Position numbers and translations under genes: made by a program. The notes under the pieces are model-generated. The model had not been told where the DNA came from and searched no databases. It saw only the letters and a list, made by a program, of their open reading frames with translations. Below, piece by piece: positions 39,392 through 61,318 of a stretch of 64,000 nucleotides of DNA (position 1 is its first letter; each line of letters starts with the position of its first letter). Source of the stretch: Candidatus Eiseniibacteriota bacterium (GTDB lineage Bacteria; Eisenbacteria; RBG-16-71-46; CAZAMP01); NCBI GenBank assembly GCA_965224245.1, contig OZ245046.1:2084148-2148147 (forward strand). Direction: 5' to 3'.

Positions 39392-40302
39392 GCGCGGCTC
39401 TCCTCGTCGTACGGAACGCCCACGTTCCCCGGCGGTGTCGATCGTCCGATGAAGCCGCACAGGACGACGAGCGTCAACACGTACGGAATCATCTGCACGA
39501 CGTGTGAGGGCACGTCCACGCCGAGCGAGGTCTGGAGCCTGATCTGGAGCGCCTCGGCGAACCCGAACACCAGGCTGGCCAGGACGGCCCCCCCGGGGCG
39601 CCACTTGCCCACGATCATCGCCGCCAGCGCGATGTATCCGCGTCCAGCGGTCATTCCGGACGTGAACGACGCCTGCTCGCTGGCCAGATACGCCCCCGCG
39701 AGCCCGGCCAGGAGGCCCGAGGCGAGAACGCCCGCCGTCCTCACCCGGCGCACGCGGATGCCGAGGCTCGCCGCCGCCACGGCGTGCTCGCCCACCGCGC
39801 GCAGCCGGAGCCCGAAGCGGGTCCGGTAGAGCACGACGTGCGAGGCCACCGCGATCAGGAGCGTGGCCAGGACGAGCGGATGCGAGAGGGTCGGGCCGAC
39901 CACCGGAATCGCCGACAGCCCCGACACCGCCCCCGGATCGAACCCGACGATGCGCGGCGAGTTCGAACTCGAGCCGAACACGAGCTTCAAGGTGAAGTCG
40001 GTGGCTCCGAGCATCGTCAGGTTGATCGCGATGCCCGAGACGATCTGCTCGCCGCGAAAGCGGATGGTCACGATCGCGTGCACGCCCGCCACGGCGAGAC
40101 CGACCAGGAGTGCCGCGAGCACGCCGAGCTCCGGAGCCTGACCGAAGTACGCACCGATCGCGAAGCCGAACGCGCCGGCGAGCATGATGCCCTCGAGCGC
40201 GATGTTCACCACCCCCCCGCGCTCGGAGAACATCCCCCCCAGCGACGCCAGCACGTACGGGATCGAGATGCGGAGTCCCTGGGCCACGAAGGCGATCTCC
40301 AT
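39388..40302 (-). CDS. ABC transporter permease (BMP/nucleoside-type system)
   Basis: 304-aa polytopic membrane protein, second permease of the operon. Confidence 0.8.
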   Translation of the reverse strand: MEIAFVAQGLRISIPYVLASLGGMFSERGGVVNIALEGIMLAGAFGFAIGAYFGQAPELGVLAALLVGLAVAGVHAIVTIRFRGEQIVSGIAINLTMLGATDFTLKLVFGSSSNSPRIVGFDPGAVSGLSAIPVVGPTLSHPLVLATLLIAVASHVVLYRTRFGLRLRAVGEHAVAAASLGIRVRRVRTAGVLASGLLAGLAGAYLASEQASFTSGMTAGRGYIALAAMIVGKWRPGGAVLASLVFGFAEALQIRLQTSLGVDVPSHVVQMIPYVLTLVVLCGFIGRSTPPGNVGVPYDEESRA

Positions 40303-40303
40303 G

Positions 40304-42912: not shown

Positions 42913-43985
42913 CGCGTGCGCGGCACCGTCACGCGCCCGGAGACGATGTCGTCCCGGTAGGCCTCGACCTGCGCGTGCACGTCGTCGTCGATCAGCTCCC
43001 GGTTGTGATCGTCGTAGACGTAGTCGACGCCCCGCTCGGCCAGTCCCAGCTCGCGCACGCCTCCCGAGAAGCGACCGGCCAGCTCGGCCTTGATCGTCTC
43101 GAAGACCGCGACGTCCACGCGCTTGACCATGCTGGACAGGATGCGCCCTGGCGCCTCCTCGTATTGATCGGAATCGACGCCGATCGCGAAGCGCCGCGTC
43201 TGGCGCGCCGCCTCGAACACGCCGAGACCGGTGGCGCCGGCCGCGTGGAAGATCACGTCCGCCCCGGACTCGTACTGCGCGAGGGCCAGCTCCTTGCCCT
43301 TCGACGGGTTCGCGAACGCCTCGCCGGTGACCCCGGCGTAGCTGACGAAGACGGTCACGTCCTCGCGCGCGTGCTCGGCGCCGGCCTCGTACCCCGCCTG
43401 GAAGCGATGGATCAGCGGGATGTCCATGCCGCCCACGAACCCGATCTTGCCCGTCTTCGACGTCAGCGCGGCCAGCGCGCCGACCAGGAACGAGCCCTCT
43501 TCCTCCCGGAACCGGAGCGCCGTCAGGTTCGGCGGCAGCGTCTCGCCGTCCTTCAGCGAGTAGTCCACGCAGGCGAAGTGCCGATCGGGGAACTCCTCGG
43601 CGATGTGCCGGATGTCGTCGGAGAACAGAAACCCGACCCCGAACACGAGCTTCAGGTCGGACGCCGCCATCTTCCTGAGCGACGGCTCGCGATCCGCGCC
43701 CGATGGTGGCTCCAGGATCTCGAAGTCGATCCCGAGCGAGTCGCGGGCCCGCAGGAGTCCCCGGTATGCGGCGTCGTTGAACGACTTGTCCCCGAGACCG
43801 CCCACGTCGAACACGAGCCCGACCACGGGACGGGACTGGCTGGACGACTGGTCCGCGCGGCATCCCCAGAGCACGACCGCCCCCAGCGAGAGGCCCACGA
43901 GCGCGGCCGACACCCCGCGGGCGAGGCGGCGCCGGGGCGGGTCCGGAACGCGCGTGCCACAGCGGTCGGCCATCATCCCTCCCTC
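42909..43985 (-). CDS. BMP-family ABC transporter substrate-binding lipoprotein (nucleoside-binding type)
   Basis: Start at 43983-43985 (GAGGGAGGG upstream); lipobox 'LWGC'; '[17 protein letters not shown]', 'FGVGFLF'. Confidence 0.8.
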
Positions 43986-44545
43986 GGCGGCTGGAAGCAG
44001 TGGCGGCATCGCGCCTCGTAGACGTCGGCGGCCCCGACCACGATGCGCTCGCCCGACGGTGTCTTGCGCTGGCTCCGATTGCCCGGCCCCCCGCACACCA
44101 CGCAGATGGCCAGCGTCTTGGTGATGTACTCGGCGATGGCCAGGAGCTCGGGGATCGGCTCGAACGGGCGACCGCGGTAGTCGGTGTCGAGCCCGGCGAC
44201 GATCACCCTCCGGCCGCCCGCCGCGAGATCCTGACACACACCGACCACGCGCGGACCGAAGAACTGCACCTCGTCGATGCCCACGACCTGGGCGTCGCCG
44301 GCCAGCTCGGCGATCTCGGCCGACGTGGACACGGCCTGCGACGGCAGGCTGATCTGACTGTGCGACACGATGTGATCGGCGCGGTAGCGGTCGTCGAGCT
44401 TGGGCTTGAAGATCGCCACCCGCTGCTTGGCGATCTCGGCGCGGCGCAGACGGCGAATGAGCTCCTCGGACTTTCCGCTGAACATGCTGCCGCAGATGAC
44501 TTCGACCCAGCCCGGCCGTCCGGCCGGATGCGGCGGTGGATTCAT
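43973..44545 (-). CDS. tdk: thymidine kinase
   Basis: '[17 protein letters not shown]', '[10 protein letters not shown]', C-terminal zinc ribbon 'CVVCGGPG...RCRHCF'. Confidence 0.85.
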
Positions 44546-44598
44546 GCGAGGACTCCCGACGACCGCCGGCGCCGTGGATCGCGCCGGGTCGTCCGCGT

Positions 44599-45237
44599 TC
44601 AGTTCATGCCCGCGAGCTGCGAGCGGATCTTGGTCTTCAACAGATCGACGGCCACGTGATTGTAGCCGCCCTCGGGAATGATGACGTCGGCGTAGCGCTT
44701 GGTGGGCTCGATGAACTGCTGGTGCATCGGCCGGACGTACGCCTCGTACTGCGCGATGATCGACTCGACCGAGCGCCCGCGCTCGAACACGTCCCGCTTG
44801 AGGCGGCGGATGAACCGCACGTCGGGATCGGTGTCGATGTACACCTTGATCCGCATCTTCTCGCGCAGTCGCCGGTCGTAGAACACGAGAATACCCTCCA
44901 GGATCACGATCCGCGAGCCGCCGGCGCGCGTGGTCTCCCGGGTGCGAACGTGGTTGACGTAGTCGTACACGGGGACGTCCACGTGCGTGCCGGACAGCAG
45001 CGTGTCGACGTGAGCCCGCAGGAGGTCGGTGTCGAACGCGTCTGGATGGTCGAAGTTGAACGCGGCGCGCTCGGGCTCGGGCATGTGGCCGAGGTCACGG
45101 TAGTAGTTGTCCTGCCGGAGGATGACGACCTTGTCGGGCCCCAGGTCGTCGTAGATGGACCGGGCCACCGACGTCTTGCCGGAGCCGCTGCCACCGGCGA
45201 TGCCGATCAGGATCCCCTCCTGCTCGCGCAGGATCAT
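44599..45237 (-). CDS. udk: uridine kinase
   Basis: Internal ATG at 45235-45237 gives 212 aa '[15 protein letters not shown]...LRQDNYYRD...YDYVNHVR'. Confidence 0.9.
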
Positions 45238-45539
45238 GCCCCACCTCCCCCGGAGTCCCGGCCGGACGACGGCGAGCGCGATACGTCGTCCACCACCCCG
45301 ACGATCATCGTGCGTACGGGACCACGGCCGGTCTCCATGACCACCGCGGCGCCGCCGCCTTCGTCGTTGACGAGGACCCGATCGCCCACACCCGCGTCCA
45401 CGCTGTCCAGCGCGATCACGTCGTCGGGCTCGAGCTCGCCGCGATCGTTCTCGTACGCGATCACGAGCAGCTTCCATCCCACGAGCGCGGGATGCTTGAC
45501 GGTGGACACCACCTCGCCGGTCACCCGCGCGACACGCAC
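45234..45539 (-). CDS. EutN/CcmL/PduN-family bacterial microcompartment vertex protein homolog
   Basis: GTG at 45537-45539 (GGAGGA 8 nt upstream, 1 nt after the dNK stop) gives 101 aa 'VRVARVTGEVVSTVKHPALVGWKLLVI...ALDSVDAGVGDRVLV...PVRTMIVGVVDDV', collinear with E. coli EutN; the stop overlaps the udk ATG. Confidence 0.7.
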   Translation of the reverse strand: MRVARVTGEVVSTVKHPALVGWKLLVIAYENDRGELEPDDVIALDSVDAGVGDRVLVNDEGGGAAVVMETGRGPVRTMIVGVVDDVSRSPSSGRDSGGGGA

Positions 45540-45540
45540 G

Positions 45541-46194
45541 TCAGTCCTCCGGTCCCGCGTCCAGCGCACCCAGGCGACGCGCGCGGGCCCGTACGTCTCG
45601 GTAGATCCGCTCGAGGCCGTCGTCGAGAAAGTCGGGCGCCTCGGTGTCGACCTCGAGCACCTCGAAGCGATCGCGCGCCTCGGCCATCCAGGCCGCATAC
45701 GCGTTCTCCAGCCGCTGCAGGTACTCGCGCGAGATCCCCTGCTCGCACTCGCGGCCCCGGCTCTGGATCCGCTCCACGTGGGTGTCGATCGACGCCTTGA
45801 GGTACAGGATGAGATCTGGCGGGCGAAGCCCGTCGACCATCTCCCAGAACAGCGATCGGTAGGTGTCGTAGTCGATGCGCGACATGTCCCCTTGCCGGAG
45901 CAATGTCGTCGCGAAGACCTCGGCGTCCTCGTAGATCGTGCGATCCTGGATGAACGAGCGTTTCTCCATCACGAAGCGCTTCTGGGCCTTGTAACGCTCG
46001 GAGAGAAAGTACATCTGCAGGTGGAACGACCACCGCGCCATGTCGGCGTAGAAGTCCTCGAGATACGGGTTCTCGATGACGGGCTCGTAGTACACCGGCC
46101 AGCCCAGTCGCTGGCTGAGCGTGCTCGAGACGTGCGTCTTGCCCACGCCGATGTTGCCGGCGACCGCCAGGAAGAAGCCGCGCCCGGCGCTCAC
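45541..46194 (-). CDS. deoxynucleoside kinase (dAK/dGK/dCK family)
   Basis: P-loop 'VAGNIGVGKTH', 'YYEPVIENPYLEDFY', 'ERS'-type motif region; GTGA overlap with the hpt stop. Confidence 0.85.
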   Translation of the reverse strand: MSAGRGFFLAVAGNIGVGKTHVSSTLSQRLGWPVYYEPVIENPYLEDFYADMARWSFHLQMYFLSERYKAQKRFVMEKRSFIQDRTIYEDAEVFATTLLRQGDMSRIDYDTYRSLFWEMVDGLRPPDLILYLKASIDTHVERIQSRGRECEQGISREYLQRLENAYAAWMAEARDRFEVLEVDTEAPDFLDDGLERIYRDVRARARRLGALDAGPED

Positions 46195-46718
46195 ACGCCC
46201 GCCTCGGCCGGATCGAGAACGCCGATGTAGGGCAGCTCGCGGTGCCGCTCGGCGTAGTCCATGCCGTACCCGACCACGAACTTGTCGGGGATCGCGAAGC
46301 CCACGTAGTCCACCTTCACGTCCACCTCGCGCCGATCCACCTTGTCCAGGAGCGCGCAGGTCCTGAAGGACCGGGGGCGCCGGATCTGGAGGCTATCGCG
46401 CATGTAGGCCAGCGAGCGACCCGAGTCCACGATGTCCTCGACGAGCAAGAGATCGCGGCCGGAGACGTCGGTGTCCAGGTCCTTCAGCAGGCGCACGACG
46501 CCGCTGGAGGACGTGCCGTCCCCGTACGAGGACACGGACATGAAGTCGACCTCGTGCGGGATCGGCAGCCTGCGCATGAGGTCCGACATGAACATGAACG
46601 AGCCCTTGAGGACGCCGACCAGGATCAGGTCGGCGTCGGGACCGTAATCGCGCGTGATCTCCCCGGCGAGCTCGTCGACCCGCCGGTCGATCGCCTCGCG
46701 CGTGATGAGTATCTCCAC
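46191..46718 (-). CDS. hpt: hypoxanthine phosphoribosyltransferase
   Basis: GTG at 46716-46718 (GGGGGGAG upstream) gives 175 aa; PRPP motif 'LLLVEDIVDSGRS', 'YVGFAIPDKFVVGYGMDYAERHR'. Confidence 0.85.
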   Translation of the reverse strand: MEILITREAIDRRVDELAGEITRDYGPDADLILVGVLKGSFMFMSDLMRRLPIPHEVDFMSVSSYGDGTSSSGVVRLLKDLDTDVSGRDLLLVEDIVDSGRSLAYMRDSLQIRRPRSFRTCALLDKVDRREVDVKVDYVGFAIPDKFVVGYGMDYAERHRELPYIGVLDPAEAGV

Positions 46719-46851
46719 GGCTGAGCTCCCCCCTGCGCGCGCTTGCGGAATTGAGTCGGCGAGGGTAGCGTCCCGCTCGAGAGGGGTCAATCGGTCTCCC
46801 CGGCACACGCCGCAACGCGGTACGGCTCCGAACGCTCGCCCCGAGGTCGCC

Positions 46852-47949
46852 ATGGCAGACGACGCCACCACCCATCCTCCGATCACCCGCGAGCTGATCC
46901 TCGCGCTTCCCAAGACCGACCTCCACGTACACCTGGACGGATCCCTCCGGCCGGAGACCGTGCTGGAGCTGGTCGGGCAGTACGGGATCGAGCACCCGGC
47001 GAGGACTCCCGCCGAGATGCAGCGCGCGCTCAGCGTGGACGGGTCCCGATCCCTCGAGGAGTACCTCGAGGTCTTCGAGTTCACGCTGCGCCTGCTCCAG
47101 GAGCGCTCGTCCATCGAGCGAGTGGCCTACGAGCTGGCCGTCGACGCGGCCGCCGAGAACGTCCGGCACCTGGAGGTGCGATTCGCCCCGATTCTCCATC
47201 AGAGTCAGGGCCTCTCGCTGGACGAGATCCTGGACGCGGCCCTCGCCGGGCTCTCGCGGGCGAACTCCGAGACCGGCATCCGGACCGGCGTCATCGTGTG
47301 CGGCATCCGGCACATCCGCCCCGAGCGCTCGCTCGATCTGGCCGACCTGGCCGTGCGCTACAAGCACCGGGGCGTGGTCGCGTTCGATCTGGCCGGCGCC
47401 GAGCGGGACAACCCCGCCAAGCATCACCTGGAGGCGTTCTACCGGGTCCTCAATGCGAACCTCAGCTGCACCGTGCACGCCGGTGAGGCGTTCGGCCCGG
47501 CCTCCATCCACCAGGCCATTCACTACTGCGGCGCGCACCGGATCGGGCACGGCACACGGCTTCGGGAGGACCCCGAGCTCCTGGCCTACGTCAACGATCA
47601 CCGGATCCCGATCGAGATGTGCCTCACGTCCAACCTGCACACCGGCGCGATCTCGCGCCTCGAGGACCATCCGTTCCGCGACTACTTCGACCTGGGGCTC
47701 CGGGTCACGCTGAACACCGACAACCGGCTCATCTCGAACACGACGGTCACCGACGAGCTGGTCCTGGCCTGCGAGATGTTCCGGCTCACGCCCGGCGAGC
47801 TACGCTACGTGATCCTGAACGGATTCAAGAGCGCCTTCCTGCCCTTCGCCGAGAAGGTCGAGATGATGGCCCGCGTCGTGGAGGAGCTGGATTCGGTGCT
47901 CCAGGCGCATCATCCCGACAGCTCCCACCACGGCCGGTCGATCCTCTGA
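46852..47949 (+). CDS. add: adenosine deaminase
   Basis: Internal ATG at 46852; 'LPKTDLHVHLDGSLRPET', 'HAGE', 'HRIGHG', 'TLNTDN'; the listed ORF has a spurious 5' extension. Confidence 0.9.
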   Translation: MADDATTHPPITRELILALPKTDLHVHLDGSLRPETVLELVGQYGIEHPARTPAEMQRALSVDGSRSLEEYLEVFEFTLRLLQERSSIERVAYELAVDAAAENVRHLEVRFAPILHQSQGLSLDEILDAALAGLSRANSETGIRTGVIVCGIRHIRPERSLDLADLAVRYKHRGVVAFDLAGAERDNPAKHHLEAFYRVLNANLSCTVHAGEAFGPASIHQAIHYCGAHRIGHGTRLREDPELLAYVNDHRIPIEMCLTSNLHTGAISRLEDHPFRDYFDLGLRVTLNTDNRLISNTTVTDELVLACEMFRLTPGELRYVILNGFKSAFLPFAEKVEMMARVVEELDSVLQAHHPDSSHHGRSIL

Positions 47950-47992
47950 ACATCCCCGTCCACGCGGTCCTCACCTCGTGGCGGGAACACGC

Positions 47993-47998
47993 TATAAT
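47993..47998 (+). promoter_or_regulatory. isolated consensus -10 hexamer (TATAAT)
   Basis: Perfect TATAAT 60 nt upstream of the 48059 ATG in a 70% GC background; no good -35 partner. Confidence 0.25.
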
Positions 47999-48058
47999 GG
48001 ACGGGTCGCGCATGCGCGGCGCGAACCGTCGACGCACATCCCCGGAGCTCCATTCGGC

Positions 48059-48517
48059 ATGCCTCAGCTCGAGCAAACGAAGGTCCGTGTCTCCCGCCAA
48101 ACCGTTCGAATCCTCTGGTGGGCCTACGCCGGCGCCGTGGCGCTCTCCACCGTCCTGACCCTGGTCGGAACGGGCACGCGTGGAGAGACCGGGACGACCT
48201 GGTCGATTCCGGTGGCCGTGTGCCTGGGGGCCGCGCTGGTGGCCGCCATCTTCTCCTACCAGGTCATGATGTCGCTGCCCGGAGCCGGACATCAGATCTT
48301 CGACACCGTCGGCGATCACTTCGAGCTGGCGATTCGCAACCTCTTCTTGCGATTCGTTCTCGCCGGCGGCGCGGCGACCGGCACCGGGCTCGTGGGGGCC
48401 GTCACGTTCGCGCTCGGTGCGAACGGCGTGCTCAGCCTGGCCGTGATCGGCCTGGCGTTCGGGCTCCTGTTGCTCCTCCGCCAGCGCGTCGCACCGCTGG
48501 TTCACTACCTGGCCTAG
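48059..48517 (+). CDS. hypothetical membrane protein
   Basis: ATG at 48059 (GGAG upstream); about 4 hydrophobic segments; high GC3; the opposite-strand ORF is Arg-rich. Confidence 0.55.
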   Translation: MPQLEQTKVRVSRQTVRILWWAYAGAVALSTVLTLVGTGTRGETGTTWSIPVAVCLGAALVAAIFSYQVMMSLPGAGHQIFDTVGDHFELAIRNLFLRFVLAGGAATGTGLVGAVTFALGANGVLSLAVIGLAFGLLLLLRQRVAPLVHYLA

Positions 48518-48593
48518 CTCACCGGACCCGTCGCGCGCGGGCACGGGAGCGGGCGCGCTGCACCGCGATCCCCCGGACGGGCACCGAGGTCGC

Positions 48594-48622
48594 TTGAACC
48601 GAACGCCTTACGCGGCTATGCT
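48594..48622 (+). promoter_or_regulatory. putative sigma70-type promoter
   Basis: TTGAAC (48594-48599), 17-nt spacer, TATGCT (48617-48622), about 90 nt upstream of the 48715 ATG. Confidence 0.35.
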
Positions 48623-48714
48623 GTGCGGCCTTCGAACGCCCCCGGGGCGAACGGGCGTCTCCGACGTGCTCCGTCCCGGCTCGATTTCTCCCCCAAACGG
48701 AGGGCTTCCCGAAC

Positions 48715-49359
48715 ATGCCCAAAGCGATCTGCGGAGTCGTACTCGCCGCCGGCTACGGATCGGTCGGTGAGCAGCGGAAGGTCCATCTGACGGTCGACCG
48801 GAAGACGCTGGTGCGTCGAGCCGTGGATCGCTTCGACGAGACCGGCGTCTCCAGCGTGCTGGCCGTCATCGACCCCCGGGACGAGACCACGCGCCGGTCC
48901 CTGGAAGGCAGCCGGGCCACGATCGTCGAGGCGGCCACCGCACAGGTGAGCGCCGGCGTCGCCGCGGCGCTGGAGGGCGCGACGCCCGACGCCGACGCCT
49001 ACGCGTTCGTGCCGGCCACGCTGGCGCTGATCACGCCCGAGCTCCTGGCTCAGTCCCTGTCGGCCTTCGAAGAGACCGCCGACGGGATCCTGGCCACGGT
49101 CTACCAGGCGGTCCCGGGCTATCCGATGATCGTCGAGCGCCGGTTCCGGGATCCGCTCCTGGCCGCGGTGAAGGAGCAGTCGGACCCCCTGGGGCTTCTC
49201 CTGCTCGACCACCCTCGGGACGTGTTCGATCTCCACGTGATCACCGACGCGCCGATCTTCGACGTCGACGACGAGAGCGACTACGAGGAGCTGCACCGGC
49301 GGCTGGGGCTGAGCGTGCCCGAGTCGAGCCCCTCGTCCTCCGAGGGAGCCGGCGTCTGA
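48715..49359 (+). CDS. nucleotidyltransferase-family protein (MobA/MocA-like)
   Basis: 'ICGVVLAAGYGS...G' N-terminal NTP-transferase motif and C-terminal 'DVDDESDYEEL', as in MocA-type cytidylyltransferases. Confidence 0.6.
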   Translation: MPKAICGVVLAAGYGSVGEQRKVHLTVDRKTLVRRAVDRFDETGVSSVLAVIDPRDETTRRSLEGSRATIVEAATAQVSAGVAAALEGATPDADAYAFVPATLALITPELLAQSLSAFEETADGILATVYQAVPGYPMIVERRFRDPLLAAVKEQSDPLGLLLLDHPRDVFDLHVITDAPIFDVDDESDYEELHRRLGLSVPESSPSSSEGAGV

Positions 49360-49409
49360 CGACGCGCACCCTGCGCCTCATCCAGCGCCGGCGTCCCGCC
49401 GGACACGAG

Positions 49410-49445
49410 AAACGCCTCCCCGGGCCGGTGCCCGGGGAGGCGTTT
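49410..49445. terminator. bidirectional intrinsic terminator hairpin
   Basis: Perfect 15-bp inverted repeat AAACGCCTCCCCGGG / CCCGGGGAGGCGTTT with a 6-nt loop, between convergent genes ending at 49359 (+) and 49511 (-). Confidence 0.6.
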
Positions 49446-49510
49446 CGTCGTGTCGTCCGAGACCGTTGCCGGCCGAGGCGGCCCGTGGCCGCCCCGGGTC
49501 GACATCCGGT

Positions 49511-51289
49511 CTAGCGATACTGGCTCTTGATCTGGCCCCAGCTCTTGCGGTGGATCGGGGTCGGGCAGCTGACGCCGTCCTCGATGTCCGTCCGCCGCCG
49601 CGGCAGGACCTGGTAGCCCTCGTCGTACGGCGAGGAGCTGTCGAACTGGCCCGCGATCCCGGTGATCGTGAACGGCATGACCGGAATGGCCGAGCCGTCG
49701 ATGTCGGTGTCGCTGTCCACGCGCATCTCCGAGGGACCGGTACCGTCGTCGATCACGAGGTTGACGCTCACGCCGTCGGCCGGCCACTCGCCCGAGATGA
49801 TCTCGACGCCGCAGATCTTGATCAGGCAGTCGTCGTAGGCCTCGCCGTTGGAGGCGTACTCGCCGGTCGTGATCTCGATGGGCTCCGGCAGCGGCGCGGT
49901 GCCGGAGATCACGAGGCTCGTGATGCTGGTGATCTCGGTCTTGCCGTTGAAGAAGTCCAGCGTCCCGACGACCTCGGTGATGAAGTCACCCTCGGCGATC
50001 GGGTTGGCGAAGGTGTCGTAGCTGAAGTCGAAGAGCGTGATGCAGCAGCCGGTCGACGGCTGGTAGACCTGGATCTCCAGGCCGCCCACCCGGAACACGT
50101 CGGTGGCCACGGTGGCCACGACGTCCGTGATGCGCACGAGCTCGCCGAAGTGAACCGGGAAGCCGTTCGCGTCGTTCTCGTCCAGCTGACAGACGGTGTA
50201 GTCGGTCGGATCGGTGACCGGATCGCAGTCCGGATCGTTGAACGCGCCCGGCGTGGGCGTGATGTCGGCCACGAAGTCCTCGGCGTTGTCGTCGGTGTCC
50301 ACGCCGTCGGGGCAACGCGCGATCGACGTGCCACCCGGGACGTCCGGCGCCGCGGTCCCGCCCTCGCAGACCAGGTCCGGATCCTCGCCGTAGCACACGC
50401 TGTCGATGTTCTCGGCGGGGTCGGTGATGTCGTATGTGCCGTCGCCGTTGGCGTCGAAGGCCAGGACGACCTGGTCCGGTCCGTTCTGCCAGTCGGCGGT
50501 CGCGTCGATGAAGTCGGCCTCGGCCACCGTCGCGTCCTGGGCCACCACGAAGTAGCCGTCGCCCGGGATCGCGTTGCCGTCGAGCACGAGCGTCGCGTAC
50601 ACGACGCCGCCGTTGCCGTTCACGCCGATGAGCGCGTGACCGTCGAGGCTCTGGCCCGCGTTGCCGTAGAGCTCGGTGAACATACCCACGTCGGTGCCCG
50701 AGCCGTCGTAGAGCACCTCGTTGATCACGAGCGCGACGCCCGTGCCGCAGACGAGATCGTTCTCGGCGCCCGGCGTCGGCGTGTCGTCGGCCAGGAAGTC
50801 GACCTCGTTGTCGTCGGTGTCGGAGCCGTCCGGACAGCGGGCGAGCGAGACGCCGCCGAAGACGTCCTCGGCGAAGGTGCCGCCCTCGCAGACGAGGTCG
50901 GGATCGGAGCCGTAGCACACGCTGTCGATGATGTTCACTCCCTGCACCAGGCGGACCTGATCGGGGCCGTTCTGCCAGTCCGCGGTGCCGTCGACGAGGT
51001 CGGCCTCGGTCACGGTCGCGTCCTGACCGACGACGAAGTAGCCGTCGGCGGGAATCACGGATCCGGTCAGATCGATCGTCGCGTACACGACGCCGCCGTT
51101 GCCGTTGACGCCCTCGAGCGCGTACCCGTCGAGGCTCGTGCCGGGCTCGCCCTTGAGCTCGGTGAACATGCCCGCATCGGTGCCCGGGCCGTCGTACAGC
51201 AGCTCGTTGATGACGATCTGCGCTCCTGCCGTCCCGGCGAACCCGGTCAGCGCGAGAACGGACGCGATCGTCACTTGCAACCGCTTCAT
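49511..51289 (-). CDS. secreted protein with two tandem lamin-tail-like domains
   Basis: Internal ATG at 51287-51289 (AAGGAG upstream); signal peptide 'MKRLQVTIASVLALTGFAGTAGA'; two ~162-aa repeats each with 'INE(L/V)LYDG.GTD.GMFTEL', 'GVNGNGGVVYAT', 'GYFVV.QDATV', 'DSVCYG.DPDLVCEGGT', 'ARCPDG.DTDDN'. Confidence 0.75.
   Translation of the reverse strand: MKRLQVTIASVLALTGFAGTAGAQIVINELLYDGPGTDAGMFTELKGEPGTSLDGYALEGVNGNGGVVYATIDLTGSVIPADGYFVVGQDATVTEADLVDGTADWQNGPDQVRLVQGVNIIDSVCYGSDPDLVCEGGTFAEDVFGGVSLARCPDGSDTDDNEVDFLADDTPTPGAENDLVCGTGVALVINEVLYDGSGTDVGMFTELYGNAGQSLDGHALIGVNGNGGVVYATLVLDGNAIPGDGYFVVAQDATVAEADFIDATADWQNGPDQVVLAFDANGDGTYDITDPAENIDSVCYGEDPDLVCEGGTAAPDVPGGTSIARCPDGVDTDDNAEDFVADITPTPGAFNDPDCDPVTDPTDYTVCQLDENDANGFPVHFGELVRITDVVATVATDVFRVGGLEIQVYQPSTGCCITLFDFSYDTFANPIAEGDFITEVVGTLDFFNGKTEITSITSLVISGTAPLPEPIEITTGEYASNGEAYDDCLIKICGVEIISGEWPADGVSVNLVIDDGTGPSEMRVDSDTDIDGSAIPVMPFTITGIAGQFDSSSPYDEGYQVLPRRRTDIEDGVSCPTPIHRKSWGQIKSQYR
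50219..51220 (-). repeat. intragenic tandem duplication (2 x about 486 bp)
   Basis: DNA-level repeat, e.g. 'cgtcgcgtacacgacgccgccgttgccgtt' at 50591-50620 and again at 51077-51106; period 486 nt equals the 162-aa protein repeat. Confidence 0.65.
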
Positions 51290-51530
51290 GCGATGCACTC
51301 CTTTTGCGTTGCTGGCACTGGACCGCCGGAGCCTCACCCGGCCGGGTCCCGCGCGCAGGCGGGCACCCTCCCGGCCGGCCGACACCCGAACGGTCGGTCG
51401 CTGGATCTCCCATGGTCGCGTCATTTGCGTCAAGTCTATCACCGGCCTCGGTTTGGTACCACATGCGCGGCCCCCATCGGGCCCCATCACGAAGTTCTCA
51501 TCCACCGGCGCGCTTGCTAGACTGCCGCGC

Positions 51531-51974
51531 ATGAGCGCTCACCCCAAGCGACCGGACGGCCCTGCGCGCCCCGATCCGGGCACACGGGCCGCCCTCGAGG
51601 GCCTCGTCTCCCGGTGCGGGCCGTCGCCCGGTGACCAGTGCCCCGCTCTCGCGGCCTGCGGCGACACCGCGGGCCCGATCGGGGTCGCGGTCACGGTCCG
51701 GAGCCAGACGCCCGGCCTCGGCGCCTGCGCGACCCGGCTCGTCCTGGCCCGCGCCGTGGCCGAGGGACGGGCCGCCACACACCTGGTCGTGGACGGCGAC
51801 TGGCAACGGCTGTGCGGGCTCTGCCTGCAGACCCTGCTCGAGCTGGCGCCCGAAGCCCCGGTCTTTCCGCTCGGCCCCAACCCCTCGGCCCCGGTGCCCT
51901 GGCGATCGTTGATCCCGGATCCGTTCGTCTCGTTCATCCCCGAGCCGGCCCCCGGAGGCCCCCGTGTCGACTGA
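51531..51974 (+). CDS. hypothetical Cys-containing protein
   Basis: ATG at 51531; high GC3; 147 aa with 'CGPSPGDQCPALAACGD' and 'CGLC'; its stop overlaps the rpiB start. Confidence 0.5.
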   Translation: MSAHPKRPDGPARPDPGTRAALEGLVSRCGPSPGDQCPALAACGDTAGPIGVAVTVRSQTPGLGACATRLVLARAVAEGRAATHLVVDGDWQRLCGLCLQTLLELAPEAPVFPLGPNPSAPVPWRSLIPDPFVSFIPEPAPGGPRVD

Positions 51975-52431
51975 CCGGCCGAGGCGGGTCGCCATCGGAG
52001 CCGACCATGCCGCCTATCGTTACAAGGTCTCGCTCATGGAGTGGATGAGAGAGGAGCTGGCGGGCGTGTCGGTCCTGGACTGCGGCACCCACTCCGAGGC
52101 CCCGGTCGACTACCCCGACATCGCGGCCGCGGTCGCGAACGCGGTCCGGACCGGCGAGGTGGACCGCGGCATCGTCATCGATCACGCCGGGATCGGATCC
52201 ACGATGGCCGCGAACAAGATCCGCGGGGTCCGGTGCGCGCTGTGCCACGACGAGGCGACCGTCCTCAACAGCCGCCGCCACAACGACGCGAACGTCCTGG
52301 CGCTGGGAAGCGCGGTCGTGAACGTCGGCTACGCGCGCACGCTCGTCCGCGTGTGGCTCGCCGCGCCGTTCGAGGGCGGACGGCACGCGCGGCGCGTGGA
52401 CAAGATCATGGCGCTCGAGGGCTCGTCGTGA
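51964..52431 (+). CDS. rpiB: ribose-5-phosphate isomerase B (RpiB/LacAB family)
   Basis: 'RVAIGADHAAY...VIDHAGIGSTMAANKIRGVRCAL...RRHNDANVLALG...EGGRHARRV' aligns with E. coli RpiB; GTG start. Confidence 0.85.
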   Translation: MSTDRPRRVAIGADHAAYRYKVSLMEWMREELAGVSVLDCGTHSEAPVDYPDIAAAVANAVRTGEVDRGIVIDHAGIGSTMAANKIRGVRCALCHDEATVLNSRRHNDANVLALGSAVVNVGYARTLVRVWLAAPFEGGRHARRVDKIMALEGSS

Positions 52432-53234
52432 TCGTCCCCGGCGGCAACGCCGTCCCGCCCGCGCTCCGCCGGGCCATCGAGGAGCGCGGCCCGAGCGCGA
52501 GTCCGGCGGCCGGGGGCCGTGCCCCGATCGCCTCGATCGCGTCGGTCGTCGACCACACGCTGCTCCGGGCCGACGCCTCGCAGACCCAGATCGAGACGCT
52601 CTGTGCCGAGGCGATCGAGTACGGCTTCGCGTCGGTGTGCGTGAATGCGATCTGGGTGCCGGTGGCCGCGCGCGCGCTCACCGGGTCGGACGTGAGCGTG
52701 TGCACGGTGGTCGGCTTTCCGCTGGGTGCCATGCGCTCGCCGATCAAGGCGCTCGAGGCCGAGACCGCCCGGGCACGCGGCGCGCGGGAGATCGACATGG
52801 TGGTGAACGTGGGCGAGCTGATCGGCGGCGGCGCCGACCGGGTCCGCGAGGACATCGCAACCGTCCGCCGCGTGCTGTCACCCGACGCCACGCTGAAAGT
52901 GATCCTGGAGACGGCGTTCCTCTCCGACGACCAGAAGCGACTGGGCGCCCGCGTGGCCGTCGAGGCCGGCGCGGACTTCGTGAAGACGTCCACCGGCTTC
53001 GGCCCCGGCGGAGCGACGGTGCCCGACGTGCGGCTGCTCGCCGAGACCGTGGGCGAGCGGTGCCGGGTCAAGGCCTCGGGCGGCATCCGGACGCTCGCCG
53101 CGGCGCGGGCCCTCGTCGAGGCGGGCGCGGCGCGCATCGGGGCCAGCGCCGGCGTGGCGATGGCGCGTGAGGAGCGCGGGCTCTCGACGACGACGACGAT
53201 CCCATCGGCCCCACCGCCTCACGGCGGCTACTGA
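52428..53234 (+). CDS. deoC: deoxyribose-phosphate aldolase
   Basis: GTG at 52428 overlapping the rpiB stop; 'VDHTLL', 'VVGFPLG', 'KVILET', Schiff-base lysine region 'AGADFVKTSTGF', 'KASGGIRT'. Confidence 0.85.
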   Translation: MIVPGGNAVPPALRRAIEERGPSASPAAGGRAPIASIASVVDHTLLRADASQTQIETLCAEAIEYGFASVCVNAIWVPVAARALTGSDVSVCTVVGFPLGAMRSPIKALEAETARARGAREIDMVVNVGELIGGGADRVREDIATVRRVLSPDATLKVILETAFLSDDQKRLGARVAVEAGADFVKTSTGFGPGGATVPDVRLLAETVGERCRVKASGGIRTLAAARALVEAGAARIGASAGVAMAREERGLSTTTTIPSAPPPHGGY

Positions 53235-53365
53235 GCCGGATCCGGCCTCGCTCCCGGCGGTCGCCGCGCCCGGGCCCACCCGGAAAAGGGTGGCGAACGC
53301 CCGAAGCGGAACACTAGACTCGCCCGCACGTGAACACCCGTCGACGACCCCAACGCTCCCGTGGG

Positions 53366-56269
53366 ATGCGCATGACGTTGCCGCTTCATCAGCGCCGCCG
53401 AGCCCTCCCGGGCCTCGTCGCGATCGTCCTGGTCACGCTGGCGACGCTCGTCGCGTCGACGACGACCGCCGGCCTCGCGCGCGCGGCGGACGCCCCCGCC
53501 GGTCAGACCGGCATCGTCCGGGGCACGGTCGTGGACGGCGACTCCCAGGAGCCCCTCCCCTTCGCCAGCATCATCGTCAAGGGGACCACGCGCGGCGCTC
53601 CGTCGCGCGACGACGGCTCGTTCGGCATTCGCGGCGTCGCCACCGGCAGCCAGGCGCTGCTGGTGACCTACGTCGGCTACTCGCCGATGGAGTTCCCCGT
53701 CCTCATCCATGCCGGCGAGGTGACCACGGTGCGCATCGAGCTGTCGCGGTCGGTCGGCTCGGTCGAGGAGGTCAAGGTCTTCGGAGACCGTCCCCTCGTG
53801 GACGTGCGCGAGACGTCCTCGTTGAAGACGCTCTCCACGCAGGACATCGACGACCTGACGATCGAGCCCACGCTGGAGTCGCTGCTGGGTCAGCAGGCCG
53901 GCGTGTCGGTCCAGGACGGTGAGATCCACATCCGGGGCGGACGATCCGACGAGACCGCGCTGATCGTGGACGGCGTGTCGCTGAAGGACGCCGTCTCGGG
54001 CGCGGCGGTGGCGGGCGCGCTCAGCGCCGGATCGGCGGCCGAGGTGTCGGTGGCCAAGGGCGGCTGGAGCTCCAAGCACGGTGACGCGATCAGCGGCGTC
54101 GTCGACGTGCGGGTGCGCGAGGGCACCGAGCAGTGGAAGGGCTCGGTCAGCTACACCACCGATGCGATGGTGGGCACGCAGTCGCTGCACTACGCCAATC
54201 TCCAGCTGAGCGGACCCAACGTGCTGTTGAAGCCGTTCTCGGCGCTGTTCGGCATCGACCGCTCGCAGCCGGCCACGTTCCACCTCGACCTGTCGACCGA
54301 GCTGTCGGACACGTACCTGCCCTCGGTCCGGGATCTCGGCCCGGGACGCCGGCGACTGAAGTCGTCGTACGTCAACACGCTCCTCGGGAAAGACCTCGAC
54401 TTCGGAGACTTCTTCACCCCGCGCGGCAGCAACGACTGGCGCTTGACCGCGAAGACGGGCTGGACGGTTCATCCCGCGCACAAGCTCACCGCCACGTACA
54501 TCAAGTCGCTCGGCTTCTCGAGCCAGTTCCAGGCGGTGGACATCGGGGAGGTGAACCAGAACATCACGCAGTACCCGTGGGCCTGGAGCCACCGCCTCGA
54601 CGACCACTACACGATCTCGACCGACTTCTACGCGCTGTCGCTGCAGTGGAAGCACTCGCTGGGCGACACGAAGTACCATCAGCTGCGCACCAAGTATCGC
54701 TTCTCGGCCACGCACCAGGACGTCCGCGGCCTGAACTGGGCCGACTACGAGGAGCCGTCGGACGAGATTCTCGACGACGATCACCCGTACTTCGTCGACT
54801 CCGGCACCGCGCCCCAGTACCACGACCGCTACTCCGAGCTGGCCGGCATCGACTGGGACTTCGTGTCCAACGGCGAGCACCACGACGTCGAGTTCGGGGT
54901 CAGTGCCGGCTACGAGGACGTGCAGTACTTCAGCCTCGACGCCTACAGCGTGACCCAGGACGCGCCCCTCGGTGACGAGTACGACCTCTTCCGCGTCTTC
55001 CCGGCCAAGGGCAGCTTCTACGTCGACGACAAGATCGAGTATCCCGGCATCGTCATGCGCGTGGGTGTGCGCGGCGACGTCTTCTTCCCGGGCGAACGCG
55101 TGGAGCGCCTGTTCGACGCGGCCGATCGACCGGGCTTCAACGAGGCCACGCGGGCGGAGTGGTACGACGCCACGAACGAGATCTTCGGGCGGCGCTACAA
55201 GATCCGCTTCAGTCCGAGCCTGGGGATCAGCCATCCGATCACCGATCGCAGCAACTTCTTCTTCAACTACGGTCGGTTCACGAAGTGGCCCACGTACTTC
55301 TACATGTACGCGGCCACGGGCGGCATCTCGTCGCCGGAGTTCGCCAACATCGGCAACCCCAACCTCGACCCACAGATCTCCGCGCAGTACGAGTTCGGTG
55401 TGGGGCACCGGCTCTCGGATCGGCTCTCGCTTCGCGCACAGGTCTTCTTCAAGGACATCTACGACTACCCGACGTCGGTGCCCGTGGAGCTCGGCACCCG
55501 CGAGACCCGGCGCCAGACGTTCTTCGTCTACCGCAACGCCGACTACGGGCGATCGCGTGGAATCGAGATCGAGGTGCAGCGCCGGCGCGAGCGCTACGCC
55601 TGGTACTCGGCCAGCTACTCGTTCTCGGTGGCCTCCGGCAAGTCGTCCGATCCTAATGCGCTCAACGTCGTGCAGTCGCTCGGTGGCGACGCGCGAGAGA
55701 CCGATCTCGAGGAGCAGTTCCTGTGGTGGCATCGCCCACACAAGCTGACGCTGTCGGGCGGCTATCAGGTCGACGCCGATCAGCGCGCCCCGAAGCTCTT
55801 CGGGTGGAGGCTTCCCAGGGAGTGGAAGCTGAGCTTCTTCTGGCTTCTCCAGTCCGGCGAGGCCTACACGCCGACCACCCCGCTGGGTACGCGCATCGAC
55901 AAGAGCTACTCGCGCAACGGCCCCATCGACAGCGTGTTCGATCTGAACGTGGTCAAGACGTTCCGGGTGGGCGATCGGCCCTTCCAGCTCACGTTCTCGG
56001 CCCGCAACCTTTTCAACCACCGGACGGTGCTCGAGATCGACTCGGCCACCGGAGACTCGCCGCGATCGGGGCTGGGCTCGAACTGGCGACCCGCCGAGAG
56101 CCCGCAGGAGCTCGTCGCCGTGGGCTACACGGTGCGTGAGACCGACACGCTGTACGAGGAGCTGGCCGGCTTGAACGACGCCATCGTGCGTTCGATGACC
56201 GGGCTGTTGAACCCCGCGTACATCGCCGCGCCGCGCAGCCTCCGGGTGGGCATCGGCTATGAGTGGTAG
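53366..56269 (+). CDS. TonB-dependent receptor, SusC-like (carboxypeptidase-regulatory-like domain, plug, beta-barrel)
   Basis: Signal peptide; 'GIVRGTVVDGDSQEPLPFASIIVKG...YVGYSP' CarboxypepD_reg-like; plug 'VEEVKVFGDRPLVD...IHIRGGRSDETALIVDGVSL'; barrel ending in an aromatic residue '...RVGIGYEW'; start could be 53330 (GTG), 53366 or 53372. Confidence 0.8.
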   Translation: MRMTLPLHQRRRALPGLVAIVLVTLATLVASTTTAGLARAADAPAGQTGIVRGTVVDGDSQEPLPFASIIVKGTTRGAPSRDDGSFGIRGVATGSQALLVTYVGYSPMEFPVLIHAGEVTTVRIELSRSVGSVEEVKVFGDRPLVDVRETSSLKTLSTQDIDDLTIEPTLESLLGQQAGVSVQDGEIHIRGGRSDETALIVDGVSLKDAVSGAAVAGALSAGSAAEVSVAKGGWSSKHGDAISGVVDVRVREGTEQWKGSVSYTTDAMVGTQSLHYANLQLSGPNVLLKPFSALFGIDRSQPATFHLDLSTELSDTYLPSVRDLGPGRRRLKSSYVNTLLGKDLDFGDFFTPRGSNDWRLTAKTGWTVHPAHKLTATYIKSLGFSSQFQAVDIGEVNQNITQYPWAWSHRLDDHYTISTDFYALSLQWKHSLGDTKYHQLRTKYRFSATHQDVRGLNWADYEEPSDEILDDDHPYFVDSGTAPQYHDRYSELAGIDWDFVSNGEHHDVEFGVSAGYEDVQYFSLDAYSVTQDAPLGDEYDLFRVFPAKGSFYVDDKIEYPGIVMRVGVRGDVFFPGERVERLFDAADRPGFNEATRAEWYDATNEIFGRRYKIRFSPSLGISHPITDRSNFFFNYGRFTKWPTYFYMYAATGGISSPEFANIGNPNLDPQISAQYEFGVGHRLSDRLSLRAQVFFKDIYDYPTSVPVELGTRETRRQTFFVYRNADYGRSRGIEIEVQRRRERYAWYSASYSFSVASGKSSDPNALNVVQSLGGDARETDLEEQFLWWHRPHKLTLSGGYQVDADQRAPKLFGWRLPREWKLSFFWLLQSGEAYTPTTPLGTRIDKSYSRNGPIDSVFDLNVVKTFRVGDRPFQLTFSARNLFNHRTVLEIDSATGDSPRSGLGSNWRPAESPQELVAVGYTVRETDTLYEELAGLNDAIVRSMTGLLNPAYIAAPRSLRVGIGYEW

Positions 56270-57284
56270 CGCGCACGCAGCCGCGGCGATCGGCGCTGCC
56301 CGCGCGGCCGCCGCCGCTCTCGCGGCGATGGCGGTCCTCTCGTGCCTGGCGGGCCCCGTCTCGGCCATCGGCGACCAGCGCTCGGGCACCAGCTCGGGCA
56401 CGTTCCTCAAGATCGCCGCCGATCCCCGGGGCGCCGCGATGGGCAACGCCGTGGTGGCCGACGCGCCCGGGATCACCGCGCTCGTCTGGAACCCGGCATC
56501 GCTGACCACGCTGGGCACGATGCAGCTCATGGCGTCGTACACGCGCTGGCCGGGCGAGATCGACTACTCGTACGCGGCGCTGGCCAGCTACGTCGGGCGC
56601 TTCTCCGGCACCGTGGGGCTCCAGATCGGCCACCTCGGCGTCGTCATGGAGGAGACGACCGAGGCCAATCCGACCGGGACCGGCGAGAACTTCGGCGTCC
56701 GGGACTGGTTTCTGGCGGGAACCTACGCGCGCCGGTTCACCGACCGGCTCTCGTTCGGCCTCACCGCCCGGTTGGTGCGCGAGGAGCTCGGCACCGAGAT
56801 CGGCGGTCCGTCCTCCACGAACGTGCTGTTCGACTTCGGGACGCTCTACTACATGGACTTCCTCGATCTGAAGCTGGCGTTCGCGCTCCAGCACTTCGGT
56901 CCCGAGTTTCAGCCCAGCGGTGAGTACGTCTCGGCCGCGACCGGCGCGGAGACGAGCTACGAGCCCTTCGCCCCTCCCACGACGTTCCGCCTCGGCGTTT
57001 CGGGTCCCATCCATCGCACCGAGCACACGCTGATCCGGGGCAACGTCGAGATGAACCACTTCTCGGACGCCGACGAGACGCTCCGCGTGGGCACCGAGTT
57101 CGGCTTCGACGACATGTTCTTCGTGCGCGCCGGATACGACATCGCCGCGGACGCGATGAAGTTCTCGGCTGGAGCGGGCTTCCACACGCGTTTCGGATTC
57201 AGCACCGGAGACGCGGACTACGCGTTCACCGATGCCGGCCCACTGGGAGTGGTACACCGCGTTGCGATTCGCATCGATCTGTAG
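56259..57284 (+). CDS. PorV/PorQ-like (FadL-fold) outer-membrane beta-barrel protein
   Basis: Signal peptide; N-terminal 'GTFLKIAADPRGAAMGNAVVADAPGITALVWNPASL' matches the FadL/PorV-family motif; amphipathic beta-strand pattern; start overlaps the last codons of the receptor gene. Confidence 0.5.
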   Translation: MSGSAHAAAAIGAARAAAAALAAMAVLSCLAGPVSAIGDQRSGTSSGTFLKIAADPRGAAMGNAVVADAPGITALVWNPASLTTLGTMQLMASYTRWPGEIDYSYAALASYVGRFSGTVGLQIGHLGVVMEETTEANPTGTGENFGVRDWFLAGTYARRFTDRLSFGLTARLVREELGTEIGGPSSTNVLFDFGTLYYMDFLDLKLAFALQHFGPEFQPSGEYVSAATGAETSYEPFAPPTTFRLGVSGPIHRTEHTLIRGNVEMNHFSDADETLRVGTEFGFDDMFFVRAGYDIAADAMKFSAGAGFHTRFGFSTGDADYAFTDAGPLGVVHRVAIRIDL

Positions 57285-57312
57285 ACCGGCGCACCCCGGC
57301 GCCCCTGGGCGC

Positions 57313-61307: not shown

Positions 61308-61318
61308 GGGTATCGCCG

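Follow-up and report, generated by a model that had tools for sequence, protein, structure and literature searches.

The DNA analysed here, which we call the window, is a stretch of 64,000 nucleotides from a Candidatus Eiseniibacteriota bacterium (contig OZ245046.1 of assembly GCA_965224245.1). Its minus strand carries a gene, here named the LTD-OB gene, whose 592 aa product is made up of a signal peptide, two Ig-like lamin-tail domains (LTDs), a predicted pair of oligonucleotide/oligosaccharide-binding (OB) folds and a short basic C-terminal tail. The gene is located within an 18 kb cluster of nucleoside salvage and catabolism genes, and the positions of the features discussed below are listed in Table 1. 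The LTD-OB protein is best read as a Sec-exported, non-catalytic binding protein, and it represents a new combination in which a binder of the DUF5689/DdbD type is joined to lamin-tail domains of the ExeM type, in a new phylum, with no nuclease and with a different C-terminal signal. An earlier note on this DNA, made from the sequence alone, had singled out the gene; the OB-fold C-terminus, the divergent TonB-dependent receptor operon, the extreme acidity of the protein and its conserved tail motif go beyond that note.

The longest version of the LTD-OB open reading frame (ORF) begins at position 51532. Translation likely starts from the ATG at 51289, which has an AAGGAG ribosome-binding site 8 nt before it and begins a sequence typical of Sec signal peptides; this yields the 592 aa product and the gene limits given previously. 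A database protein, P0001, is identical to it. Secretion, also claimed in the earlier note, is supported by the signal peptide, which is of the signal peptidase I (SPI) type, and by its 14 Cys, whose positions are repeated: each LTD has four at equivalent sites, and the OB module has the other six. The predicted mature protein is strongly acidic (103 D+E versus 16 K+R, net charge -87), and the OB module alone has a net charge of -31 and only 8 K/R. The last 17 residues are the opposite, with a charge of +4. Acidity is general in the LTD-OB family.

When the protein was scanned with Pfam, the LTD model (PF00932) scored 47.8 bits against a cut-off of 34.3 (E = 2.2e-12) and matched in two stretches, as expected from the two lamin-tail-like domains reported before. 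No nuclease family was found in it with Pfam or NCBIfam, which also agrees with the previous description. Sequence searches of the two LTDs against PDB returned no meaningful match.

The C-terminal region, for which the earlier note had suggested structure prediction, proved more informative. AlphaFold2 (AF2) was run on aa 350-592 with an alignment of 68 homologues, and the resulting model was confident (pLDDT [predicted local distance difference test] score 94.6, predicted template modelling [pTM] score 0.87) and contained two consecutive beta-barrels. Comparison with PDB using Foldseek placed tandem-OB DNA binders at the top, with Teb1-AB followed by the HIN-200 domains of AIM2, IFI16, p202 and p204, including 4jbm, and with RPA also among the nearest structures. 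These top matches had probabilities of approximately 1.0, template modelling (TM) scores of 0.3-0.4 and sequence identities of 8-15%. From the AF2 barrels and the Foldseek matches, we conclude that the C-terminal 220 aa are predicted to form a tandem OB fold of the nucleic-acid-binding superfamily. The similarity does not extend to membership of the HIN-200 family by sequence, as a profile of the OB module gave no match in PDB with an E-value below 0.048. An invariant DxDTDxDG loop (aa 525-532; DSDTDIDG in the window protein) looks like a calcium site.

Kinship of the OB module with DUF5689 (PF18942) emerged through intermediates. A profile (A3) built from 21 trimmed modules of close orthologues retrieved 7485 cluster representatives with E <= 1e-3, including 763 with E <= 1e-30. 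Among 51 of these relatives that were sampled, 29 matched PF18942 (best 2.9e-33), 29 matched the tRNA_anti-codon OB fold, 28 had a type IX secretion system (T9SS) C-terminal domain and 13 had an LTD, and none had a nuclease domain, whether of the endonuclease/exonuclease/phosphatase (EEP) family or another (0/51). PF18942 was also matched by 12 of the 21 close orthologue modules (best 5.6e-06), and the orthologue P0004 has a precomputed match. Pfam returned nothing for PF18942 at E <= 1 with the full window protein. As the score of its module falls below the Pfam threshold, we treat the window module as a divergent relative rather than a Pfam-defined member, and the chain of intermediates places it in the DUF5689 lineage. 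Thousands of large proteins contain the DUF5689-like double-OB module, in up to six copies each (many have three to six), and its relatives also carry cupredoxin, Calx-beta, CBM_56 and T9SS domains. Together, these proteins make up a large class of surface proteins that is still essentially uncharacterised.

The two LTDs resemble one another far more than expected by chance (local alignment score 585). The earlier note had reported that the repeat is also visible in the DNA, with a period of 486 bp and about 85% identity, and had taken it to be recent or under concerted evolution. The DNA repeat is real and the 486 spacing was recovered for a pair of 270 nt segments (50461-50730 and 50947-51216; 81% identity), but in a second pair of 185 nt (50224-50408 and 50746-50930; 77% identity) the spacing is 522, as copy 2 includes a 36 nt (12 aa) insertion. 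Across the whole LTD units (aa 25-181 versus aa 187-355), 116/157 aa (74%) and 368/471 nt (78%) are identical, and the figure of 85% was therefore too high. Tandem Repeats Finder called no 486 bp array in 49000-52000 because the repeat is too diverged and too gapped for its threshold. LTD1 and LTD2 differ with dN 0.20, dS 0.48 and dN/dS 0.42, and this dS understates their divergence, as the GC content at third codon positions of the gene (GC3, 95%) compresses synonymous change.

The number of LTDs varies among relatives, for which the earlier note had proposed a comparison of copy number. The two-LTD layout is common to five orthologues, P0002-P0006, of 574-593 aa that are 62-71% identical to the window protein, and many close homologues, of approximately 400-420 aa, contain a single LTD. 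LTD1 of the window shares 77-78% identity with LTD1 of P0002, P0003 and P0004 and 74% with its own LTD2, and the LTD2 units of P0003-P0006 group together in an alignment of all LTD units. As window LTD1 is nearer to its counterparts in the orthologues than to LTD2 of the same protein, the duplication is older than the split of these lineages. It thus predates the divergence of at least six lineages, and the copies have evolved largely independently since. Single-LTD proteins P0008, P0009 and P0022 hold the same genomic position, which indicates that the second LTD was gained within this orthologous group. A recent duplication, or ongoing concerted evolution, is very improbable. The nucleotide identity over 471 nt could be read that way, as could the fact that a protein's own copies are more alike in the window (74%) and P0002 (70%) than in P0003-P0006 (64-66%), and a neighbour-joining tree puts WIN_LTD2 and P0002_LTD2 nearer to the LTD1 group. 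However, a 12 aa indel sets the copies apart, dS has reached its present value in spite of the high GC3, the layout is shared with proteins as divergent as P0002-P0006, and the affinity of window LTD1 with its orthologues shows that the copies have not been visibly homogenised. The excess similarity is slight and leaves room for some old gene conversion between the copies, but no more.

The most novel element of the LTD-OB protein is its tail signal. The protein ends in ...CPTPIHRKSWGQIKSQYR, which conforms to the motif (T/V)P(V/T)Exx(S/T)WGxIKx(L/M)YR-COOH. The tail is the extreme C-terminus of 49 of 120 family homologues, whatever is inserted upstream, and other homologues (e.g. P0066, P0067 and P0073) have a T9SS C-terminal domain where the tail would be. 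When one genome per species was scanned with the pattern TGGGGCNNNATCAAGNNNNNNTAYCGNTRR, at least 119 loci were found, against approximately 9 calculated by chance under uniform base composition, and the matches listed were nearly all from Candidatus Eisenbacteria, Krumholzibacteriia or unlabelled metagenome-assembled genomes. Every match (129/129) falls at the end of an ORF and in its reading frame. Positions outside the search pattern were also conserved, namely Ser/Thr before the Trp (95%), Leu/Met at -3 (69%) and a (T/V)-P-(V/T)-E segment that lies six residues upstream. The same loci included 38 further matches to the peptide pattern that had not been selected by the DNA pattern, and 30 of these end exactly at the stop codon and 6 within three residues of it. 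As 30 of the 38 unselected matches coincide with the stop codon, the motif belongs to a free C-terminus.

Carriers of the tail number at least 167 ORFs and represent many unrelated families of secreted type, with beta-helix, PMP, NHL, PD40, FG-GAP, MAM, CBM, metallophosphatase and LTD domains. They are often encoded by adjacent genes (six in locus L021, four in L070 and four in L106), and the LTD-OB ORF is the sole carrier in the 64 kb window. A hydrophobic segment is present at the N-terminus of 85 of 97 carriers and at the C-terminus (last 40 aa) of 6. Their passenger domains match NCBIfam families that elsewhere bear PEP-CTERM, MYXO-CTERM or rhombosortase (GlyGly-CTERM) signals or are described as 'choice-of-anchor'. 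One of these 97 tagged Eisenbacteria ORFs matches NCBIfam ExeM (5.5e-27), from which it follows that the phylum has ExeM-like nucleases in which this tail replaces GlyGly-CTERM. In the AF2 model, the tail of the window protein is a short helix (pLDDT approximately 70-80) with the Trp, Ile and Tyr on one face.

No NCBIfam model covering the tail or any sorting domain was found in the window protein or the tagged ORFs, and our literature search found no relevant paper on the motif or on Eisenbacteria sorting signals. Pfam identified no T9SS beta-sandwich domain (PF18962, PF13860 or CHU_C) in the window protein, and the window tail, which is basic and has no hydrophobic helix, does not show the signature of sortase, exosortase or rhombosortase substrates, in which a motif is followed by a transmembrane helix and a basic cluster. 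Two other identities for the tail were considered and ruled out. It is not a beta-signal of the beta-barrel assembly machinery (BAM), as the protein is soluble and multi-domain and ends in Tyr-Arg rather than in an aromatic residue, and it is not a truncated T9SS domain, as it is too short and shares no motifs with one. Genes for T9SS-type cargo adjoin tagged genes, and the tail thus appears to mark a route separate from T9SS. Clustering of 593 ORFs from the 119 loci yielded no convincing candidate for a processing enzyme among recurrent untagged neighbours, which comprised only T9SS-type cargo, peptidase-like proteins and transporters.

Like the T9SS C-terminal domain and the PEP-CTERM, GlyGly-CTERM, MYXO-CTERM and LPXTG signals, the tail is found at the extreme C-terminus of many unrelated proteins with signal peptides, is lineage-restricted and substitutes for those signals on homologous passenger domains. 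Unlike them, it is only approximately 10-17 residues long, has neither a transmembrane helix nor a beta-sandwich, includes no invariant Cys, Gly-Gly or Pro-Glu-Pro, and has no identified processing enzyme. We put at about even the chance that the tail is a hitherto undescribed kind of C-terminal signal for sorting or anchoring, found throughout Eisenbacteria and used by many unrelated Sec-exported proteins, the LTD-OB protein included. The balance is similarly level on whether the signal consists of an amphipathic basic peptide of about 10-17 residues that needs a free C-terminus and no membrane span or folded domain, and on whether it sends its carriers to a specific destination in the envelope by a yet-unknown machinery, for which the arguments tip neither way.

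The genes around the LTD-OB gene are concerned with nucleosides. The LTD-OB gene is monocistronic and converges on the gene for a MobA-like nucleoside triphosphate (NTP) transferase. The strong hairpin between the two genes is likely a bidirectional terminator, and was missed by a scan for consensus terminators because it has no T-run. Beyond the MobA-like gene, the uptake and salvage block encodes two permeases, an ATP-binding cassette (ABC) ATPase and a Bmp/PnrA-like binding protein for transport, and thymidine kinase, uridine kinase, deoxynucleoside kinase, an HPRT-type phosphoribosyltransferase and adenosine deaminase as enzymes. An EutN-like protein, an unknown 179 aa protein and the MobA-like NTP transferase complete it. 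On the other side, the LTD-OB gene diverges from an operon that includes rpiB, deoC and the gene for a TonB-dependent receptor, and the earlier identification of adenosine deaminase, rpiB and deoC as neighbours is borne out by Pfam. No Rfam family and no sigma-70 consensus was found in the divergent intergenic region, and the wider interval 44000-58000 contained no riboswitch or other Rfam family. The N-terminal carboxypeptidase-regulatory-like domain of the receptor is of the same type as that of DdbC. The gene for a PorV/FadL-like protein adjoins the receptor gene here and in loci L120, L121, L123 and L128. The PorV/FadL-like protein sits where transporter pairs in Bacteroidota have their substrate-binding partner.

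Table 1. Features in and around the LTD-OB gene; positions are those of the window unless a locus is named, and a dot marks a feature given without a strand
Feature	Position	Strand	Basis or remark
Nucleoside phosphorylase	32191-33072		
Nucleoside uptake/salvage block	39388-49359	.	Pfam matches
EutN/CcmL-family small protein	45234-45698	-	Microcompartment vertex type
EutN/CcmL counterparts in syntenic loci	L120 16998-17288; L121 14185-14469; L123 14115-14390; L128 13021-13287		
179 aa protein	47978-48517	+	Membrane-like
MobA-like NTP transferase	48715-49359	+	
Hairpin between convergent LTD-OB and MobA-like genes	49405-49451	-	RNA fold -51.2 kcal/mol, z = -7.4
LTD-LTD-tandem-OB protein, coding sequence, 592 aa	49511-51289	-	ORF, with start from ribosome-binding site and signal peptide; stop codon 49511-49513
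Basic C-terminal tail, 17 aa, TPIHRKSWGQIKSQYR	49514-49564	-	Core tag SWGQIKSQYR at 49514-49543
Predicted tandem OB-fold module, aa 356-575, divergent DUF5689/DdbD-like	49565-50224	-	Invariant DxDTDxDG loop and WP motif
Lamin-tail domain 2, aa 187-355	50225-50731	-	Second Pfam LTD stretch; 12 aa insertion; 4 Cys
Lamin-tail domain 1, aa 25-181	50747-51217	-	Best Pfam PF00932 stretch (aa 20-127) and repeat boundaries; 4 Cys
Sec (SPI-type) signal peptide, aa 1-24, MKRLQVTIASVLALTGFAGTAGA, cleavage before Q	51218-51289	-	No lipobox Cys; putative cleavage site
Divergent intergenic region, LTD-OB gene to small ORF-rpiB-deoC-receptor operon	51290-51530	.	241 bp
Shine-Dalgarno sequence AAGGAG	51298-51303	-	8 nt before ATG 51289; read from sequence
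Small conserved ORF, 147 aa, heading the rpiB-deoC-receptor operon	51531-51974	+	No Pfam match here
rpiB	51964-52431	+	Pfam LacAB_rpiB
deoC	ends 53234	+	Pfam DeoC
TonB-dependent receptor, 979 aa	53330-56269	+	Pfam CarbopepD_reg_2, CarboxypepD_reg, Plug, TonB_dep_Rec_b-barrel, OMP_b-brl_3
PorV/FadL-like outer-membrane protein, 341 aa	56259-57284	+	Weak Pfam PorV and Toluene_X; overlaps receptor gene by 11 nt

When ten related loci were examined, the same gene order with the LTD-OB gene in place was found in L120, L121, L123 and L128, so that the salvage-cluster position is kept in 5/10 with the window included. The LTD-OB proteins of the four loci (P0005, P0008, P0009 and P0022) are 53-63% identical to the window protein, and synteny persists despite a subtilase or FG-GAP gene inserted beside the LTD-OB gene. 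The 179 aa protein and MobA-like genes, between adenosine deaminase and the LTD-OB gene, are conserved there in the syntenic loci. The EutN/CcmL gene lies between the deoxynucleoside kinase and uridine kinase genes in all five syntenic loci. As no further shell genes of a microcompartment were found near it, its presence in a nucleoside operon is odd. The positional orthologue of the 147 aa ORF in L121 has a weak match to dCMP_cyt_deam_1 (cytidine/dCMP deaminase), and the 147 aa product may be a degenerate or divergent deaminase. Further downstream on the plus strand, 57232-62839 includes large ORFs (680, 509 and 506 aa) with traces of NHL or fn3 or no Pfam match, and ORFs of 517-522 aa in L120 and L128 (weak NHL or no Pfam match) are apparent positional counterparts. 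Among the loci with the LTD-OB family gene elsewhere, L124 and L127 form one pair and L125 and L126 another; one context includes M16 peptidases, Yip1, YchF and ATP synthase and the other an MFS (major facilitator superfamily) transporter and a SpoU methylase. This suggests several paralogous LTD-OB lineages per genome, with differing roles or simply inherited positions.

Two groups of characterised proteins resemble the LTD-OB protein in part. In Bacteroides thetaiotaomicron, ddbABCDEF is needed for the depletion of exogenous DNA, and DdbC is a TonB-dependent transporter on which DdbD, annotated as DUF5689, is predicted by AlphaFold3 to dock; DdbD resembles the dsDNA-binding HIN domain of p202 (PDB 4JBM) (bioRxiv 10.1101/2025.03.18.642099). 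Natural transformation of Riemerella anatipestifer requires the DUF5689 protein RA0C_RS04920 together with RA0C_RS04915, an outer-membrane protein with a carboxypeptidase regulatory domain (PMC8459023). The tandem OB module of the window appears to belong to the same DUF5689 lineage as DdbD and RA0C_RS04920 and has the same structural neighbours (p202/AIM2 HIN, 4JBM), found independently. The window locus also encodes a TonB-dependent receptor with a carboxypeptidase-regulatory-like domain (CarboxypepD_reg, Plug and barrel), and it too is devoted to building blocks of nucleic acids. In contrast to these proteins, the LTD-OB protein comes from another phylum, has two N-terminal lamin-tail domains and is below the Pfam threshold for DUF5689. 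Its receptor gene lies on the far side of rpiB-deoC, and the scanned genes of the locus include no nucleases. It also has an SPI signal and the tail motif, whereas DdbD and RA0C_RS04920 probably have a signal peptidase II (SPII) lipoprotein anchor, judging from the lipoprotein partners in the polysaccharide utilization locus (PUL) and from the annotation of RA0C_RS04920 as 'choice-of-anchor J' and DUF5017.

The second group comprises the extracellular DNA-handling nucleases ExeM (Shewanella), Xds (Vibrio cholerae) and NucH. ExeM and Xds have an LTD followed by an OB region, of which the latter is essential for nuclease activity and the former is dispensable (PMC6085458, PMC6746945). The LTD-OB protein shares with the group a signal peptide, lamin-tail and OB regions and a C-terminal signal, here putative, for anchoring in the envelope, but it has no EEP domain, two LTDs in place of one, and the tail motif in place of GlyGly-CTERM. 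The tandem OB domains of the HIN-200 proteins (AIM2, IFI16 and p202), RPA, Teb1 and POT1 are alike in having two consecutive OB barrels and include the best structural matches. However, sequence identity and TM-scores are low, as given above, and those proteins are eukaryotic, cytosolic or nuclear, and have basic DNA-binding faces, whereas the LTD-OB protein is secreted, disulfide-rich and strongly acidic.

From these comparisons, the earlier proposal of an extracellular nucleic-acid-binding role that feeds salvage is plausible, given the OB fold, the kinship with DUF5689 and the conserved position in the cluster, and we regard it as an even bet that the LTD-OB protein is a surface nucleic-acid capture protein similar to DdbD. 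We infer its ligand, location and receptor partnership from the architecture and genomic context of the protein. The tail would sort or tether the protein in the envelope, most likely at the cell surface; a sorting role is suggested by the T9SS C-terminal domain that holds the same position in homologues. The tandem OB module would then bind extracellular DNA, RNA or oligonucleotides through conserved aromatics, probably aided by divalent cations, which we propose because of the acidic surface and the invariant DxDTDxDG loop, a feature that fits this role and does not prove it. The two lamin-tail domains may act as spacers or provide extra contacts with the polymer. Captured material could be handed to the TonB-dependent receptor, whose gene is transcribed divergently with rpiB and deoC, and broken down by nucleases and phosphatases encoded elsewhere. 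The resulting nucleosides would be imported via the Bmp-type ABC importer and either salvaged by the uridine, thymidine and deoxynucleoside kinases and HPRT or catabolised, through adenosine deaminase and, for the sugars, DeoC and RpiB. Overall, this would amount to a binder like DdbD or RA0C_RS04920 fused to lamin-tail domains of the ExeM/Xds type, without the nuclease.

A number of observations weigh against a nucleic-acid capture role. The extreme acidity (see above) is unlike the known DNA-binding surfaces of OB and HIN domains. HIN and RPA domains touch the DNA backbone through basic residues. The similarity in fold does not point to a particular ligand, TM-scores for the whole module are only 0.3-0.4, and the window module scores 14.6 bits with PF18942 against a threshold of 28.6 (E = 0.032; profile positions 116-217). 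An NCBIfam scan of the protein gave no match to ExeM or NucH models at E <= 1, and only a spurious one to MalG at 0.11. DNA binding by DdbD is itself a structural inference (bioRxiv 10.1101/2025.03.18.642099). Unlike in ddbCD, where the two genes are adjacent, 2 kb separate the LTD-OB gene from the receptor gene, which has the PorV/FadL-like gene as its neighbour. Among the genes scanned in 39388-62839, several of which have no Pfam match, the cluster showed neither a nuclease nor a nucleotidase, and any missing nuclease or phosphatase could be hidden among the ORFs of 57232-62839. Five more distant family members are in unrelated contexts, with two pairs sharing conserved contexts of their own; the family as a whole therefore has no fixed link to nucleoside genes, and some of the synteny may reflect shared ancestry. 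Lastly, the protein may reside in the periplasm instead of at the surface.

Alternatively, the protein could be a general adhesin of the surface or matrix whose ligand is not nucleic acid but, for example, a polysaccharide, cationic polymer, metal ion or mineral surface, and the position of its gene would then be inherited without functional coupling. The combination of extreme acidity with a calcium-type DxDTDxDG loop points in this direction. OB folds also bind oligosaccharides, and bacterial LTDs have been reported with oligosaccharide-binding domains (PMC6085458). Relatives with Calx-beta, CBM_56 and cupredoxin domains and up to six module copies resemble adhesin or binding arrays, and half of the family loci examined are in unrelated, clade-conserved contexts. 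We nevertheless consider an adhesin possible but somewhat unlikely, as the nearest folds are without exception OB domains that bind nucleic acids, genetics links DUF5689 proteins to both DNA uptake and DNA depletion, and the gene order shared with the salvage cluster and the DdbC-type receptor has outlasted insertions beside the gene in four diverged genomes.

The part order of signal peptide, LTD, two putative OB folds and C-terminal anchor signal is that of ExeM and Xds, and the protein could instead be the non-catalytic half of a nuclease of the ExeM/Xds/NucH type that lost or never had EEP and holds substrate in trans for a separate nuclease. That it is the OB region, and not the LTD, that those nucleases cannot do without would suit such a role, as would the tagged Eisenbacteria ORF that matches ExeM. 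However, the window protein itself has no such match, the A3 profile found one family member among the 97 tagged ORFs and this was not the ExeM-like ORF, nuclease domains are absent from the sampled relatives, and no nuclease gene was found nearby, so that we consider this origin quite unlikely. It is about as improbable that the protein is a periplasmic binder or chaperone for nucleotides or oligonucleotides that have passed the outer membrane, with the tail as a signal for retention in the periplasm or at the inner leaflet of the outer membrane. The signal peptide without a lipobox and a tail without a transmembrane segment or known secretion domain are consistent with a periplasmic protein, and, as genomes with the tail also encode T9SS-type cargo, the tail marks another destination. 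Yet some members of the family have, in place of the tail, a T9SS C-terminal domain, which carries cargo across the outer membrane, and the tagged passenger domains elsewhere have surface anchors (PEP-CTERM, MYXO-CTERM or GlyGly-CTERM) or 'choice-of-anchor' domains.

DNA handling by DUF5689 proteins and their transporters was described between 2021 and 2025 for natural transformation and DNA foraging, in Bacteroidota only. If the LTD-OB protein is a capture protein of this kind, the handling of extracellular DNA by DUF5689 proteins and TonB-dependent transporters would reach beyond Bacteroidota, and in uncultured Eisenbacteria the system would have been rebuilt with lamin-tail domains and a different anchor and wired directly to a complete cluster for nucleoside import, salvage and deoxyribose catabolism. 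This would make it a concrete candidate for the scavenging of environmental DNA by these soil and sediment bacteria. The LTD-OB protein also offers a clean, nuclease-free protein with which to learn what bacterial lamin-tail domains and DUF5689 modules bind. The tail motif is a testable lead to a new protein-sorting pathway, and a simple sequence rule that may predict which proteins are exported in a phylum without a cultured model.

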